64,000 bases of DNA, taken from positions 20,625 through 84,624 of the forward strand of contig DASWNF010000009.1 in NCBI GenBank assembly GCA_036399335.1, in the 5' to 3' direction. Of the stretch, positions 24,165 through 28,556 are shown piece by piece (within the stretch, counting starts at the first letter, position 1; every line of letters starts with the position of its first letter). This DNA is from Minisyncoccota bacterium. GTDB lineage: Bacteria; Patescibacteriota; Minisyncoccia; Phycocordibacterales; Phycocordibacteraceae. The position numbers were made by a program, and so were the translations under genes. Below the pieces are notes generated by a model. The model did not search any database. It was not told where the DNA came from and saw only the letters and a list, made by a program, of their open reading frames with translations.

Positions 24165-24251
24165 GGAGACGTCGCATAGTGGTCTAGTGCACCGCCTTGG
24201 AAAGGCGGCAGACTCGAAAGGGTCTCGAGAGTTCGAATCTCTCCGTCTCCG
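24165..24251 (+). tRNA. tRNA-Ser (anticodon GGA), long variable arm; CCA not encoded
   Basis: Acceptor GGAGACG/CGTCTCC, anticodon stem CCGCC/GGCGG with loop TTGGAAA, long variable arm, T-loop GTTCGAATC. Confidence 0.9.
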
Positions 24252-24267
24252 CCTGATTATTTTCTTA

Positions 24268-25311
24268 TCACCCTAGCCAGAACCAAAACTTGTTTTTGAG
24301 GTCTCGGCCAAGCTTGTACGCGTTTGCGTGAGACAACACGCCTAGATACGAGCGCAGCGATGCTTCAAGGCGATCTTTTCCCATCTGACCCTGCTTATGC
24401 TCCCTGACCCTGCTTTCCAGCTTCCTGAATATACGGCTCTTTGTCCTGGCCCTCGGGAGTATGCAGTGGGGAAGGACGACGTATCCAAGAAAGTCCACAC
24501 CCTGTCCGTATTTTCGTATGTCTATTTTGTTTGGGTGAAGAACAAGCTCCAAGCGCTCGCCCAGGAATTCCTCAATCTGTGGAATAAGCGCCTCCAAGTA
24601 GCCTTTGTCGCGCGACACGATAATAAAATCGTCTGTATATCTTGCGTAGTGCTTTACGCGCAACGCGTGTTTCATAAACTGATCAAACTCGTTCATATAA
24701 ATGTTTGCGAACAACTGCGACGTCAGGTTGCCGATAGGGATACCGGCATGCTTAAGGTGGCTCTGTCCCACAGCAAAGCTGCCTACAATCTCTCGCATGA
24801 GCCACATGACGTCACGATCTACAATTCGTCGCTCCAGTATTTCAAGCAGGACGCCGTGGTCGACAGAGTCGAAGAACTTCCGAACGTCGCACTTAAGCGC
24901 GTAACAGGTTCTTGTATTGTTCCGGCTTTCGGAACGGAGCATCTTGGCTATGGCTTCTACGCCTTTATGGGCACCTTTGCCAATGCGGCACGAGAAGGAG
25001 GTGGCTATAAAGCTCGGCTCGAATATGGGATTCAGGACGGCAAAAACGACGTGGTGAAGCACGCGATCTCTGACTGTCGCTTTACTAATCTCTCGGAGTT
25101 TCGGATCGGTGATGCGAAAGCCCGCGTACTCCTGATGCCGATACGTTTTGTCGCGCAAGTCGCGCTGGAGCTTGAAAATGTTCTTCTCAAGCTCCTTCTC
25201 GAAGCGAAGCACATCAAGTTTATTCCGTTTGCCTTTCTTAAAGCGGTCCCACGCCGAAAACAACGCCTCTGCCGAGACAATCTTTTCAAACAATCGCTCA
25301 TGCTGCTCCAT
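24268..25311 (-). CDS. diversity-generating retroelement (DGR) reverse transcriptase
   Basis: RT motifs including IPIGNLTSQLFANIYMNEFD (the DGR-type [IV]GxxxSQ signature) and YTDDF (YxDD), ~350 aa. The N-terminus LFEKIVSAEALFSAWDRFKKGKRNK is typical of DGR RTs. Confidence 0.9.
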   Translation of the reverse strand: MEQHERLFEKIVSAEALFSAWDRFKKGKRNKLDVLRFEKELEKNIFKLQRDLRDKTYRHQEYAGFRITDPKLREISKATVRDRVLHHVVFAVLNPIFEPSFIATSFSCRIGKGAHKGVEAIAKMLRSESRNNTRTCYALKCDVRKFFDSVDHGVLLEILERRIVDRDVMWLMREIVGSFAVGQSHLKHAGIPIGNLTSQLFANIYMNEFDQFMKHALRVKHYARYTDDFIIVSRDKGYLEALIPQIEEFLGERLELVLHPNKIDIRKYGQGVDFLGYVVLPHCILPRARTKSRIFRKLESRVREHKQGQMGKDRLEASLRSYLGVLSHANAYKLGRDLKNKFWFWLG

Positions 25312-25313
25312 AT

Positions 25314-25664
25314 ATGAATGAGGTTGATATACCGATTCTAAAGAAGTCCTATGACTTGTACCGAACTTTTCATGAGTACCGGAAGGTTGTGCCGAAACAA
25401 GACCGTTTTACTATCTTCGAGCGCAGCGAGAACGTGATGCTTGATCTCATCGAGTGCCTCTTGTCGGCCGGGTACGGCGATAAACAAGGTAAGCGCCCGA
25501 TTCTTGAGCGCGCGAGCATAAAATTGAATGTGCTTCGCTTCTTTATCCGGCTCATGAAGGAAACAAAGTCTCTAGATAATAAGAAGTATGTGGTTCTTCA
25601 GGAGATGATCGACGAGATCGGCAGGATGCTAGGAGGGTGGACGCGCTCACTTGAGTCCCGATAA
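25314..25664 (+). CDS. avd: DGR accessory variability determinant Avd (four-helix-bundle protein)
   Basis: 116 aa. IKLNVLRFFIRLMKE ... EIGRMLGGW matches the conserved Avd helices (compare bAvd LAMLRFWLRFL ... EVGRILGSW). Confidence 0.85.
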   Translation: MNEVDIPILKKSYDLYRTFHEYRKVVPKQDRFTIFERSENVMLDLIECLLSAGYGDKQGKRPILERASIKLNVLRFFIRLMKETKSLDNKKYVVLQEMIDEIGRMLGGWTRSLESR

Positions 25665-25694
25665 GCAAAGAGGCGTCGTACGACGCCTCTTTGC
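25665..25694. terminator. perfect palindromic hairpin between avd and TR
   Basis: gcaaagaggcgtcgta|cgacgcctctttgc. Confidence 0.65.
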
Positions 25695-25709
25695 TCTAGC
25701 GAGGAGCGA

Positions 25710-25838: not shown

Positions 25839-26327
25839 CTAATTGCCTTCACCCATCCATGTCACCGAAGCTCGAAGCCTTACGGCATCTGGCCCCTGAA
25901 TTTAATCCGACGACGCCCGCGCGGCTCGTCTTGGGTGGAGGCAAGCAGTATCTCCTCGCTACGACGCGCTCCCGGAAGCCGTGGCCTTCGGGACTCTGGC
26001 CGTCTTCTCGCAAAGAGAAAGAGTTCGGCGACGGCTTTCCTTGAAAGGCCGTACACGAGCCTAGACTCATGGGGAAGTATAGCAATACAGCTGAGCTGCT
26101 TATGCTTAGAATCCACCACAGCGTTTCCTTGACGAGTTAGGCTATATATAGCATGATAGAGCAGGAACCTTGATAATCAGGATCACTCCATGAGGCGAGC
26201 TTTTTACGGCTTATTTCCAGCTTTACTGGACTCTTTTACAATGGTCTTTAGACCTAGGCCGTAAACAGCTCGCCTCATGGGAGGTCAAGCCGCAAGTCCG
26301 ACGATTCGGGCGTAAGGAGCTAACGTC

Positions 26328-27200
26328 ATGGCGACGCTTACTCGTATCCCCTCGGCCTCTGATGGCCAGCTCAAGCAGATCAACCGTGTGGCCGCCGATG
26401 CGGCCGAAAAGGCGATCAATGAGTTCGGCCTCAACAAGGACCAGGCTCAGCGCGTTCACGGCAGCGCCGAGTTTGCCGCCCGCATCCGCGCGGCGGTGAC
26501 CACGGTCCTCACCGACGTAGCGATCACCGATCGCTACAAGGACGAGGAAGTCGAATCCACCTACGGCTATCTCTCGGGCTACAAGCCCAAGCCGTTCATG
26601 GAGCAGGTCGCGATTCTCCAGCAGCACTTCCCGAATCTCTCGCACACCGACCTGTCGGGGTTCGACATTCCGGACGGCGCGGAGGATACATTCGCAATTC
26701 CGCGCTTCGAGAAGATCGCGCCGACGTACGGCCAGGCGGTGGAAATCGTCCTCGGCCTGATCGGGCAGACCCGCGGGTTCTACAACTACCGGAAGGGCCA
26801 GACCGGTCCGACCTATCTGCGGCAGAGCGAGCGCAAGCTCGCCGCGCTCGAAGCCATCGGCGAGAAGCAGGAAGGCGACATCCTCGTCATCCCGGCGCAG
26901 TTCGGTATCCGCCATCGCGGCCGCTCGGTTCGCCGGGCGCGGGAGGTTTTTGATGGCGACGAGTTCGGCCTGGGTGCTTTCGAGGTCAGCATCATGCTCC
27001 TCACGCACCCGGAACGGCTCCAGCACTACGATGACCTCTGGATTGACTGCGCGGGCGACGAATTCGCCCCGGGCGCCGATGGCGGCTTCTCGGACGCCCC
27101 GTTCTTCTACTTCTACGGCGTCAAGGTTAAGTTCTTCGCGTACTGGATCGACTACGCCTACGAGTACTACGGTTCTGCCTCCGGGTTCGTCCCGCAGTAA
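26328..27200 (+). CDS. DGR target (variable) protein; C-terminal ~45 aa encoded by VR; no signal peptide or TM evident
   Basis: The 3' end carries VR. TR Asn-codon (AAC) positions are replaced by TAC/TTC/GGC etc. in VR. Confidence 0.85.
   Translation: MATLTRIPSASDGQLKQINRVAADAAEKAINEFGLNKDQAQRVHGSAEFAARIRAAVTTVLTDVAITDRYKDEEVESTYGYLSGYKPKPFMEQVAILQQHFPNLSHTDLSGFDIPDGAEDTFAIPRFEKIAPTYGQAVEIVLGLIGQTRGFYNYRKGQTGPTYLRQSERKLAALEAIGEKQEGDILVIPAQFGIRHRGRSVRRAREVFDGDEFGLGAFEVSIMLLTHPERLQHYDDLWIDCAGDEFAPGADGGFSDAPFFYFYGVKVKFFAYWIDYAYEYYGSASGFVPQ
27068..27197 (+). repeat. DGR variable repeat (VR)
   Basis: Base-by-base alignment with the TR reverse complement: 15 of 15 mismatches are TR-A to VR-N. Non-A positions are identical. 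Confidence 0.9.
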
Positions 27201-27259
27201 TCCTCGCGTCTTGAGTCCTTGAATCTTTTGTATCCTTGATCCTTGGGCTCGAAATTTTT

Positions 27260-27291
27260 GGGACCATCCGCGCATATCTGCGGATGGTCCC
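27260..27291 (+). promoter_or_regulatory. 12-bp-stem hairpin downstream of VR (DGR-associated hairpin/cruciform candidate)
   Basis: gggaccatccgc-gcatatct-gcggatggtccc, 60 bp after the VR end. Confidence 0.6.
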
Positions 27292-27467
27292 AACTCTTTA
27301 TATGTTGGATAGGACATCACGCGTAAGGGTGAGCTCATATGAGGCCACTTTCAACAGACTCAGATGTGGGATTAGGACCTTAATGGACGAGCTTACGTGC
27401 TAATCTGTTCTTATTGAATATGGCGGCCTAAGCCGCTCCTCAGGCATAACCCTAAATCGCCACGCAT

Positions 27468-28556
27468 ATGAAAAGTTTTAAGATGTCCACGGGTGACGAA
27501 CCTACTAATGACGGACAGGACGTAAAAGAGGTGCGCCTTGTAGACGAAAAAGATACGCAGACATTCAAGAAGGTGGCGAAATATGCCGGTATTGGTATAG
27601 CCATTCTTCTCGGCATCAAGTTTTGGTATATCGCGGTACCTGCTCTAGCCGTCTGGTACCTCTATAAGAGGGACACCAGGCTCTCTTCCAAGACAAGGAT
27701 GAGGCTCTCTGTCGGTATTACGGCCGTGTTCTTCATGCTCGGCGGTATCACGCTGTATTCAAACAGAGCCCCTTCACTCGTTATTGCCGAACCTGCCGAC
27801 GCAGCAGCAGTTCAATCGGAAAGAATTACCGTTGCAGGCGAGGTGTCTCCCAAGGACTCTACCGTTACGGTAAACGGTATTCCCGTAGAGGTCGACGACC
27901 ACGGCCACTTTTCGTATGACATACGACTGAAGAACGAGAATAATCCACTCACCATTGAAGCCGCTCACGGAAGCAAGAAAAGCTCCCAGACGCTTACGGT
28001 CGCAAGAATATTCACCGAGGAAGAGAAGGAGGCCGTCCGGGTTGCTGAGGTGGAGGCAGCTAAGGAAAATATCCGGAGAGAAATTGCCAGTCTCAATAAG
28101 CCATTCGACGGTAGCAACTTCCGCGGAAGCGTTGTTGCGATGCAGCTAGAGATCGCTCTTTTTGGGGCATACGCAAAAACTGTTGCCGATTACAAACAGC
28201 ATCCCGACCCGGAAGTTAAGGCTCTCGCCAATCAAATGGAAGCGAAGGTGGGGCAGCTGCAGGTGAGCGAGTTCCCAAAGCTCCGGAAGGCCTATGCGGA
28301 CCTAATAGCAAAAGAGATGTGGGAGAACGATATGGAGGTATCCGTGGCTGGTAGTGCAAACAAGACAATTGTCTTTACCGCCGCGATGTTTGCAAGCAAT
28401 AAGAACATTGCGGAAGCGCATGGAACACTCCAGGAAACACTCGGTCTCTTCAGGTTCACACGGGCTAACTATAAGTGGTATACGTACGACAGTGAATACA
28501 GCTTCTATAAGATAGACAGTCCTGCGGACAGCAAGGTGGTCCAGATTGGCCAGTAA
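27468..28556 (+). CDS. hypothetical membrane-anchored protein (2 TM, large C-terminal domain), AT-richer than neighbours
   Basis: ORF with two N-terminal hydrophobic helices. Codon usage is distinct from the flanks. Confidence 0.55.
   Translation: MKSFKMSTGDEPTNDGQDVKEVRLVDEKDTQTFKKVAKYAGIGIAILLGIKFWYIAVPALAVWYLYKRDTRLSSKTRMRLSVGITAVFFMLGGITLYSNRAPSLVIAEPADAAAVQSERITVAGEVSPKDSTVTVNGIPVEVDDHGHFSYDIRLKNENNPLTIEAAHGSKKSSQTLTVARIFTEEEKEAVRVAEVEAAKENIRREIASLNKPFDGSNFRGSVVAMQLEIALFGAYAKTVADYKQHPDPEVKALANQMEAKVGQLQVSEFPKLRKAYADLIAKEMWENDMEVSVAGSANKTIVFTAAMFASNKNIAEAHGTLQETLGLFRFTRANYKWYTYDSEYSFYKIDSPADSKVVQIGQ

Follow-up and report, generated by a model that had tools for sequence, protein, structure and literature searches.

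A conserved terminator-like hairpin in the 3' untranslated region of a diversity-generating retroelement target gene from a Minisyncoccota bacterium

Introduction

The work presented here concerns an inverted repeat that follows the target gene of a diversity-generating retroelement (DGR) in a Minisyncoccota bacterium. The window, i.e. the whole stretch of DNA that was analyzed, comprises 64,000 nucleotides (nt) of contig DASWNF010000009.1 (assembly GCA_036399335.1), and all positions given below refer to it. In a first-pass annotation of this DNA the hairpin at 27260-27291 had been equated with the cruciform element that, together with the initiation of mutagenic homing (IMH) sequence, marks the boundary of mutagenic homing in characterized DGRs. 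We find that the hairpin belongs to a structure conserved in the 3' untranslated region (UTR) of a family of DGR target genes and that it probably serves the 3' end of the target mRNA.

DGRs of the candidate phyla radiation (CPR) or Patescibacteria are the most numerous DGRs in nature. The cDNA of a DGR, which is derived from the template repeat (TR), finds and replaces the variable repeat (VR) of the target gene, and to our knowledge recipient-site rules for this step have been tested only for the elements of a Bordetella phage and of Legionella.

The DGR locus

The locus was correctly recognized in the first-pass annotation as a genuine DGR. It combines a reverse transcriptase (RT), a bAvd-like accessory protein and a TR/VR pair in which all mismatches are found at TR adenines, and VR forms the 3'-terminal part of the target gene. 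The RT is encoded at 24268-25311 on the minus strand (RVT_1, E = 4.4e-23). The avd gene lies at 25314-25664 on the plus strand (PF22296, E = 1.3e-17), antisense to TR and RT. Alignment of the two repeats places TR at 25838-25709 on the minus strand and VR at 27069-27198 on the plus strand; they share 130 nt with 88% identity, and 15 of the 15 mismatches affect TR adenines. The homology ends at ...CCCG[C/A]AGT, overlapping the stop codon TAA. The last approximately 29 nt of VR are GC-rich, contain almost no TR adenines and differ from TR at one position; this end of VR is IMH-like.

The target gene itself (26328-27200, plus strand) encodes a protein of 290 amino acids that belongs to a large Patescibacteria family. 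It has 3235 homologues, including a 100% match annotated as Candidatus Paceibacterota, and the AAC codons of TR are in frame with it.

The hairpin downstream of the target gene

The stop codon of the target gene occupies 27198-27200, and the hairpin starts 57-59 nt past it, just 3' of the VR-bearing gene as had been described. The letters at 27260-27291, GGGACCATCCGC-GCATATCT-GCGGATGGTCCC, form a perfect hairpin exactly as originally given. Perfect pairing extends two pairs further than claimed, to 27258-27293 (TTGGGACCATCCGC / GCGGATGGTCCCAA), which yields a stem of 14 bp with an 8-nt spacer; 9 of the 14 pairs are G-C. The gap between VR and hairpin, previously put at about 60 bp, amounts to 59-61 nt when counted from the last VR/TR-homologous base at 27198. 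In the RNA form a G.U closing pair shrinks the loop GCATATCT from 8 to 6 nt, and the predicted folding free energy (dG) is -27.0 kcal/mol.

Folding of 27201-27320 as RNA gave z = -5.2, and folding of 27250-27300 as DNA gave z = -6.5; in both cases 0 of 200 shuffled sequences folded as well. Ahead of the hairpin the predicted fold contains just one weak long-range helix, in which 27211-27218 pair with 27245-27252. The stem is followed on the plus strand by a weak T-rich tail, AACTCTTTATATG, at 27294-27306, which emerged from a scan for terminator-like sites and from the comparison with relatives, where it corresponds to a degraded version of the family tract TTTCTCTTTT. With 5 T in its best 8 nt the tail AACUCUUUAUAU is weak, though it passes a simple terminator scan, and the hairpin site ranked first among the terminator-like sites between 20 and 35 kb of the window.

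A census of the window revealed 26 perfect hairpins with stems of at least 9 bp as compared to 2.6 in dinucleotide shuffles, and 16 with stems of at least 12 bp as compared to 0. Half of the 26 (13) are intergenic and lie 0-65 nt past a stop codon, and most of the 16 with long stems are likewise found shortly behind stop codons. The hairpin is real and non-random, yet hairpins of this kind are common in this genome. Its 12-mer has no further copy in the window at up to 2 mismatches beyond chance expectation. The first-pass annotation had proposed that recurrence of the same hairpin at many unrelated loci would mark it as a generic terminator. The hairpin is unique in the window as far as this test goes, but the test does not discriminate, since intrinsic terminators normally do not share sequence.

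Behind the hairpin, 174 nt of non-coding sequence (27294-27467) separate it from the next gene. This interval holds a small GC hairpin, GGCGGCCTAAGCCGC; it gave no Rfam match and showed no conservation in the closest relative considered, L081 (see below). The next gene, at 27468-28556, encodes Glucodextran_B and cadherin-like domains.

Conservation of the 3' UTR in related loci

The target 3' ends were compared across 80 loci from different species-level genomes whose target proteins are 46-62% identical. Two short contigs of an 84%-identical relative (L081) were added, giving 82 loci in total. RTs that are 53-67% identical adjoin the target gene in 40 relatives, and the relative orientation of avd is the same in the relatives.

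The target 3' layout of the relatives consists of the stop codon, about 50-70 nt of tandem repeats of the [CT]CTTGA type, a strong hairpin and usually a T-tract. A strong hairpin (dG -17 to -31) follows the stop codon in 75 of the 79 loci with enough sequence, at a distance of 13-141 nt (median 69). Its stem has 9-15 pairs and its loop 3-11 nt, the loop being GAAA in 11 of 80 loci. In 59 of 80 loci the G/C-closed stem is trailed, within 15 nt, by an 8-nt stretch with 6 T or more (7 in L081), and 20 of 80 have an A-rich stretch, with 5 or more A among 8 nt, ahead of the stem. About half of the family hairpins take the form GGGG[CT]TATCCAC - loop - GTGGATA[GA]CCCC, of which the window arms GGGACCATCCGC / GCGGATGGTCCC are a GC-shifted version. 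Sequence conservation goes beyond what pairing demands (GGGnYTATCCAC), with the G, TCC and C columns being invariant. The remaining loci carry unrelated stems at the same place, e.g. GAGGGGTTTGC-GAAA-GCAAACCCCTC or AACGGCTCG-CTTG-CGAGCCGTT.

A covariance model (R1) was built from 28 relatives, with the window and L081 excluded. In the 64-kb window its only significant match is at 27247-27304 on the plus strand (33.2 bits, E = 2.6e-5). On the minus strand the same site scores 19.8 bits, i.e. 13 bits lower, and the next-best matches in the window are other terminator-like hairpins with about 11 bits and E >2. Over 600 kb of sequence from the relatives, R1 matched at 50 of the 82 loci, and each of these matches fell in the target 3' UTR on the sense strand; the sole extra match follows a tandem paralogue of the target gene in L074. 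The window hairpin is a member of the family-conserved target 3' UTR hairpin that R1 defines. The comparison with the 3' elements of related targets, which the first-pass annotation had suggested as a check, has shown the hairpin to be conserved, covarying and present only in the 3' UTR of this target family. Pairing, folding, the covariance model and covariation identify the feature at 27258-27293 (plus strand) as a conserved element at the predicted 3' end of the DGR target mRNA.

In an alignment of 30 sequences, 90.5% of the cells of the stem are standard pairs and 10 of the 14 pairs have changed on both sides, whereas sliding the partner strand by 1-3 columns as a control gave at most 47% pairing. 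Among the non-Watson-Crick cells of the 12 core pairs there are 29 G.T cells, which correspond to a wobble on the sense strand, versus 5 A.C cells, which would be a wobble on the antisense strand. L081 and the window have a near-identical 3' UTR up to the hairpin, whose stem differs by two compensated A-T to G-C changes, and their similarity is lost about 10 nt past the stem. Taken together, the covariation, the 29:5 wobble bias and the point at which conservation ends argue for a structure in RNA, or at least on the sense strand, at the end of the transcript.

These results also bear on the idea that the repeat arose by chance or is a copy of a dispersed repeat, such as a repetitive extragenic palindromic (REP)-like sequence or the end of a mobile element, with no function tied to the gene. 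The richness of the window in perfect hairpins, including the 16 with stems of at least 12 bp, speaks for such an origin. Shuffled sequences give no such hairpins, though; the sequence is unique in the window, other R1 matches there reach only about 11 bits, and 50 of 82 relatives keep the element at the same position, with compensatory changes. A chance or dispersed-repeat origin is effectively refuted by the shuffles, the uniqueness in the window, the covariation and the R1 results, and we consider it extremely improbable.

The hairpin is retained at 21 homologues that have 4-kb flanks on both sides but no RT, avd or TR. At these orphan target loci, which include L010, L012, L014, L017, L019, L020, L023 and L025, the 3' UTR and the hairpin are intact; the 21 genes may be remote DGR targets or non-diversified paralogues. 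In relatives with a tandem architecture the VR-side hairpin is found 30-60 nt ahead of a TATAAT-type promoter and the conserved start of the TR RNA.

Two further observations were made in the vicinity of the hairpin in relatives. In the metagenome contigs L085, L091, L107 and L132 an open reading frame (ORF) for an IS200-like transposase (146 amino acids) is located between the target stop codon and the distal CTTGA repeats and hairpin, and this insertion puts several hundred bases between VR and the hairpin. Several relatives that share the divergent architecture of the window carry a LOOT RNA (Rfam RF03000, 73-78 bits) 60-100 nt past the target hairpin, namely at 5066-5185 in L005, 5050-5178 in L009, 5026-5150 in L015 and 5050-5172 in L018, and also in L003 and L080. 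LOOT RNA gave no match in the window between 27200 and 27520.

The CTTGA repeat array

The sequence between stop codon and hairpin (27201-27257, plus strand) is a conserved 3' UTR with tandem repeats of about 8 nt of the type [CT]CTTGA, which is present in nearly all 80 relatives. The window units read TCTTGAG, TCCTTGAA, TCTTTTGT, TCCTTGA and TCCTTGG, and the array ends in GCTCGAAATTTTT. Arrays of the family consist of 5-7 repeats with a modal spacing of 8 nt and contain 3.8 motifs per 60 nt, as compared to 1.2 in shuffles. Behind TR the CTTGA motifs are essentially absent (0.1 per 60 nt).

Pairing of the CTTGA-containing 3' UTR with the TR RNA in sense or antisense orientation was considered and rejected as unsupported. 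RNAduplex energies for 22 loci resembled those of dinucleotide shuffles, with |z| <2 at about 20 of the 22 and L005 as an outlier (z = -3.7).

The TR side of the locus

The first-pass annotation had stated that the 3' flank of TR diverges from that of VR after ...CCCGAAGT, lacks the VR hairpin and bears a different palindrome. This is indeed the case. The palindrome, placed at 25665-25694 in the earlier note, extends over 25664-25695 and has a 14-bp stem with the loop GTAC (AGCAAAGAGGCGTC-GTAC-GACGCCTCTTTGCT). It follows TR after 13 nt on the minus strand, and its first base on the plus strand is also the final one of the avd stop codon. In all of the 37 relatives with a detected TR, an A-tract, a hairpin and a T-tract are found about 12-20 nt past TR, e.g. 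AAAGGGTATCCG-CAAAA-CGGATACCCTTT, and directly past this hairpin lies the antisense 3' end of avd. This arrangement around a shared hairpin suggests that a single bidirectional terminator serves both TR and avd, which converge on it. The palindrome is accordingly a predicted bidirectional terminator common to the TR RNA and the convergent avd transcript.

The further claim that VR and TR have distinct 3' structures, as expected for IMH and IMH*, holds insofar as the two hairpins are different. The contrast, however, is one between two terminator-like hairpins and not between a hairpin and none.

Upstream of TR a conserved, apparently structured leader of the TR RNA extends over 25839-26085 on the minus strand and is kept in all 37 loci with TR. 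This leader of about 240 nt has its own TATAAT-type promoter. The motif series of leader and promoter is GAGTCTAGGCTnATGnACGG...GCCGTCGCCGAACTC...GAGGAGATACTGCTTG...AAATTCAGG...TTCAAGCTTCGGTGAC, and in the window the motifs ...GCTATACT...GAGTCTAGGCTCGTGTACGGCC...GCCGTCGCCGAACTC...GAGGAGATACTGCTTGCC... are present. The leader segment TAGCGAGGAG pairs with the TR 3' flank CTCCTCGCTA of the window. The conserved leader and its own promoter upstream of TR imply that the TR RNA is a discrete transcript. The only Rfam match within the leader is RT-7 at 25940-26000 on the minus strand, whose 22.9 bits are far under the gathering score of 116.8. Between 25.6 and 27.5 kb no Rfam family reached its gathering threshold, and the other matches in this region were spurious ones to miRNAs or snoRNAs.

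Comparison with the homing cruciform of phage BPP-1

Efficient homing in phage BPP-1 depends on a hairpin 3' of VR, and it is the structure of the stem rather than its sequence that matters (PMC3240598). Guo et al. 2011 (PMC3240598) describe a GC-rich stem of 7-10 bp, with longer stems progressively losing activity, and a 4-nt loop with the sense-strand consensus GRNA, whose size and sequence are both critical; the addition of 2 nt to the loop abolished activity. The hairpin lies 4-34 bp past VR, and no inverted repeat follows TR (Guo et al. 2011, PMC3240598). By analogy, the hairpin studied here might form in the DNA beside VR and promote the integration of mutagenized cDNA, instead of or besides terminating transcription.

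Some properties of the family agree with such a role. Like the BPP-1-type hairpin or cruciform, which is also known from a Legionella DGR, the element is a GC-rich inverted repeat located behind the VR of a target gene. Its stem varies with the structure being kept, and its 3' surroundings differ from those of TR. It is confined to the 3' UTR of this DGR target family, its stem and loop sequence is conserved beyond the needs of pairing, and the CTTGA array sits between VR and hairpin and is absent after TR. A minority of relatives (L002, L029, L035, L036, L046 and L069) have stems of 10-12 bp and GAAA loops, which fit GRNA. The strand asymmetry described above is compatible with a role in DNA too, because the sense-strand loop matters in BPP-1 (PMC3240598).

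Every testable BPP-1 feature fails for the window hairpin, though, and the equation with the characterized IMH-plus-cruciform element made in the first-pass annotation was not borne out. The stem has 14 bp as compared to 7-10, the loop GCATATCT comprises 6-8 nt and is not GRNA as compared to a 4-nt GRNA loop, and the distance from VR is 59-61 nt as compared to 4-34. A BPP-1-like hairpin 4-34 nt from VR was not found, nor was any other GC-rich inverted repeat in 27199-27257. TR also bears an inverted repeat, both in the window and in 37 of 37 relatives with TR, so that the presence or absence of a hairpin cannot mark the recipient. Loops of 3-11 nt and hairpins placed 13-141 nt behind the stop codon are found among the relatives, and in four metagenome contigs the IS200-like gene intervenes. 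The T-tracts in 59 of 80 loci, the A-rich stretches in 20 of 80 and the wobble bias to the sense strand together fit an RNA terminator. The hairpin also persists at the 21 homologues without a nearby DGR, although these are possibly remote targets. Unlike the BPP-1-type element, the element of this family has the shape of a terminator with a T-tract. The earlier interpretation as an IMH-associated cruciform is thus only partly supported. The hairpin may also help homing in this DGR lineage, but on the present evidence we regard this as rather doubtful.

DnaA-box resemblance of the family stem

The stem sequence prevailing in the family resembles a DnaA box, for which the consensus TTWTNCACA was taken from PMC13438810. 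The family stem could therefore be a putative DnaA binding site (TTATCCACA) that couples transcription of the target or integration of the cDNA to DnaA and replication, with the window copy having lost the box. An exact TTWTNCACA is present on the sense strand of 24 of 80 hairpins and on the other strand of 2, whereas composition-matched shuffled hairpins predict 0.12. A match to TTATCCACA at 8 or more of the 9 positions was found in 35 of 80 hairpins as compared to 0.4% of shuffles. The ninth base of the box lies in the loop and is unconstrained by pairing, but 18 of 22 sequences nevertheless have A there.

The commonest family hairpin, present in L030, L056, L003, L005 and others, contains the exact box in its sense arm and extends it one base into the loop. 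This box-bearing form is of the GGGGTTATCCACA type (e.g. L030 and L056), and the corresponding window version is GGGACCATCCGCG. A motif scan of metagenome sequences yielded 94 sites, 59 of which lie 16-198 nt past a target homologue. Of the other sites some belong to truncated targets or to a repeat context, and about a dozen are unrelated, i.e. oriC-like clusters or terminators of other genes. The oriC-like DnaA-box clusters that the scan also retrieved (L087, L088, L137 and L175) favor the DnaA interpretation.

The window hairpin reaches a best match of 6 of 9 on either strand, with CCATCCGCG matching 5 of 9 on the sense strand, and L081 reaches 5 of 9. A match of 6 of 9 makes the DnaA-box explanation inapplicable to the feature reported here. 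Furthermore, unrelated stems (GAGGGGTTTGC, AACGGCTCG and others) take this place in roughly half of the relatives, RT-linked loci (22 of 40) and orphans (7 of 21) show no significant difference in how often the box is present, and the box counts are not independent, as the loci are phylogenetically related. An excess of DnaA boxes in the window was not observed (7 versus 6.9 expected), and the titles and abstracts retrieved in a literature search gave no sign of DnaA being tied to DGR target sites. While about one third of the homologous hairpins carry an exact box, the window hairpin has none, shows no clustering of boxes and lacks an oriC context. The resemblance is a real but unexplained property of the sequences of part of the family and not of the window's element, and a function of the hairpin through DnaA seems very unlikely.

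A related possibility is that the CTTGA array and the hairpin act as a terminator plus a recipient-site signal for the integration of cDNA. The array and hairpin would then attract a host protein that binds DNA or RNA, be it DnaA or a different one, or would stall replication or transcription beside VR and thereby expose single-stranded DNA for the cDNA. We consider this quite improbable. If true, it would imply a target recognition unlike the IMH and GRNA cruciform of BPP-1, and a first link of DGR homing to the replication initiator.

The hairpin as the probable 3' end of the target mRNA

We favor the view, with a probability of roughly 0.6, that the hairpin is a Rho-independent (intrinsic) terminator or a 3'-end stabilizing stem-loop of the DGR target mRNA, acting as RNA on the sense strand. 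From the existence, homology, conservation, covariation, strand bias, position and flanking tracts of the element we infer termination to be its selected activity. RNA polymerase would transcribe the target gene and the conserved 57-nt 3' UTR, the GC-rich stem of 14-15 bp would then form in the nascent RNA and, with the U-rich stretch behind it, the transcript would be released. In tandem relatives, where the TR cassette follows directly downstream, the hairpin would keep transcription of the VR-containing mRNA from running on into the TR RNA, which has a promoter of its own. In the window, where the TR cassette is located upstream and in divergent orientation, it would merely end the target transcript before the next gene at 27468. 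The TR-side palindrome at 25664-25695 would be a second terminator of the same general type.

The shape of a hairpin with a T-tract, the A-rich stretch in about a quarter of the loci and the 29:5 ratio of wobbles favor a terminator acting as RNA over a symmetric cruciform in DNA. Loss of conservation between L081 and the window about 10 nt past the hairpin is what would be expected at the end of a transcript, and the position ahead of the TR-RNA promoter in tandem relatives is the expected place of an insulating terminator. As in intrinsic terminators, including bidirectional ones, a GC-rich stem-loop is located tens of nt past the stop codon, and in the family a T-rich tract follows it (59 of 80) and an A-rich one precedes it (about one quarter). 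The covariation preserves pairing, the G.U wobbles are biased to the sense strand and conservation ends just after the element.

Several properties weigh against termination as the function. The window copy has no canonical U-tract (5 U in the best 8 nt) and a long loop. Termination leaves unexplained why the sequence of stem and loop is conserved across species, and likewise why the approximately 60 nt of CTTGA repeats are conserved. Conservation of stem and loop sequence across distant species is unusual for terminators. The window element thus differs from typical intrinsic terminators in its weak, interrupted U-tract and its loop of 6-8 nt, and the family differs from them in the conserved stem and loop sequence and in the array of 8-nt CTTGA repeats that precedes the hairpin.

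Terminators are well known, and inverted repeats behind DGR targets have been described before. According to the catalogue of Wu et al. 2018 (PMC5758913), GC-rich inverted repeats follow the IMH in 34% of 372 DGRs, and some of those behind DGR targets were suspected to be terminators. The inverted avd of the window may correspond to B3 of this catalogue. The novelty of a terminator at this place is therefore modest. The passages of the catalogue (PMC5758913) found by term search make no mention of a family-specific 3' UTR with conserved sequence that is composed of CTTGA repeats and a hairpin or of a terminator shared by TR and avd.

Further features of the locus

Just 2 nt separate the divergent start codons of RT (minus strand) and avd (plus strand) at 25309-25316, so that the promoter of each gene must sit inside the coding sequence of the other. 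A tRNA gene at 24165-24251 lies 17 nt past the stop of RT, on the strand opposite to it. The window also contains genes for RNase P RNA and tRNAs; together with the 100% protein match these identify it as part of the chromosome of a Candidatus Paceibacterota bacterium.

A long hairpin in the 5' UTR of the target gene spans 26188-26280 on the plus strand (arms 26188-26213 and 26255-26280) and was found as an inverted repeat and in relatives. Its 26-nt arms are 92% complementary, and the predicted dG of 26180-26290 is about -58. In the 11 relatives inspected, a TTGACA-17-TATACT promoter is followed by a TGAGGyGAGC...GCTCrCCTCA hairpin, a small second hairpin, a Shine-Dalgarno sequence and ATG. 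This hairpin is a candidate cis-regulatory leader and provides context for the target gene separate from the 3' element.

The target protein matched no Pfam domain, and its family profile matched no sequence in the PDB. An AlphaFold2 model had a mean predicted local distance difference test (pLDDT) score of 60.7, with values below 50 in the VR region. A crude longest-ORF call had chosen an antisense ORF of 371 amino acids (26223-27338, minus strand) that spans the target gene and the hairpin. It was rejected in favor of the plus-strand gene at 26328-27200, which the AAC codons of TR, the substitutions in VR and the 3235 homologues all support. The antisense ORF is an artefact that stems from the high GC content of the coding region, and automated gene prediction could be misled by it.

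Conclusions

Overall, the results indicate that the BPP-1 rules are not simply transferable to the DGRs of CPR bacteria, as VR and TR are both followed by a hairpin here and both hairpins are terminator-like. For annotation, this cautions against labelling inverted repeats behind DGR targets as homing cruciforms by default. The conserved target 3' UTR, the independently transcribed TR RNA with its leader of about 240 nt and the TR/avd terminator are reusable landmarks of this family, and they offer concrete constructs for reconstituting a CPR DGR.

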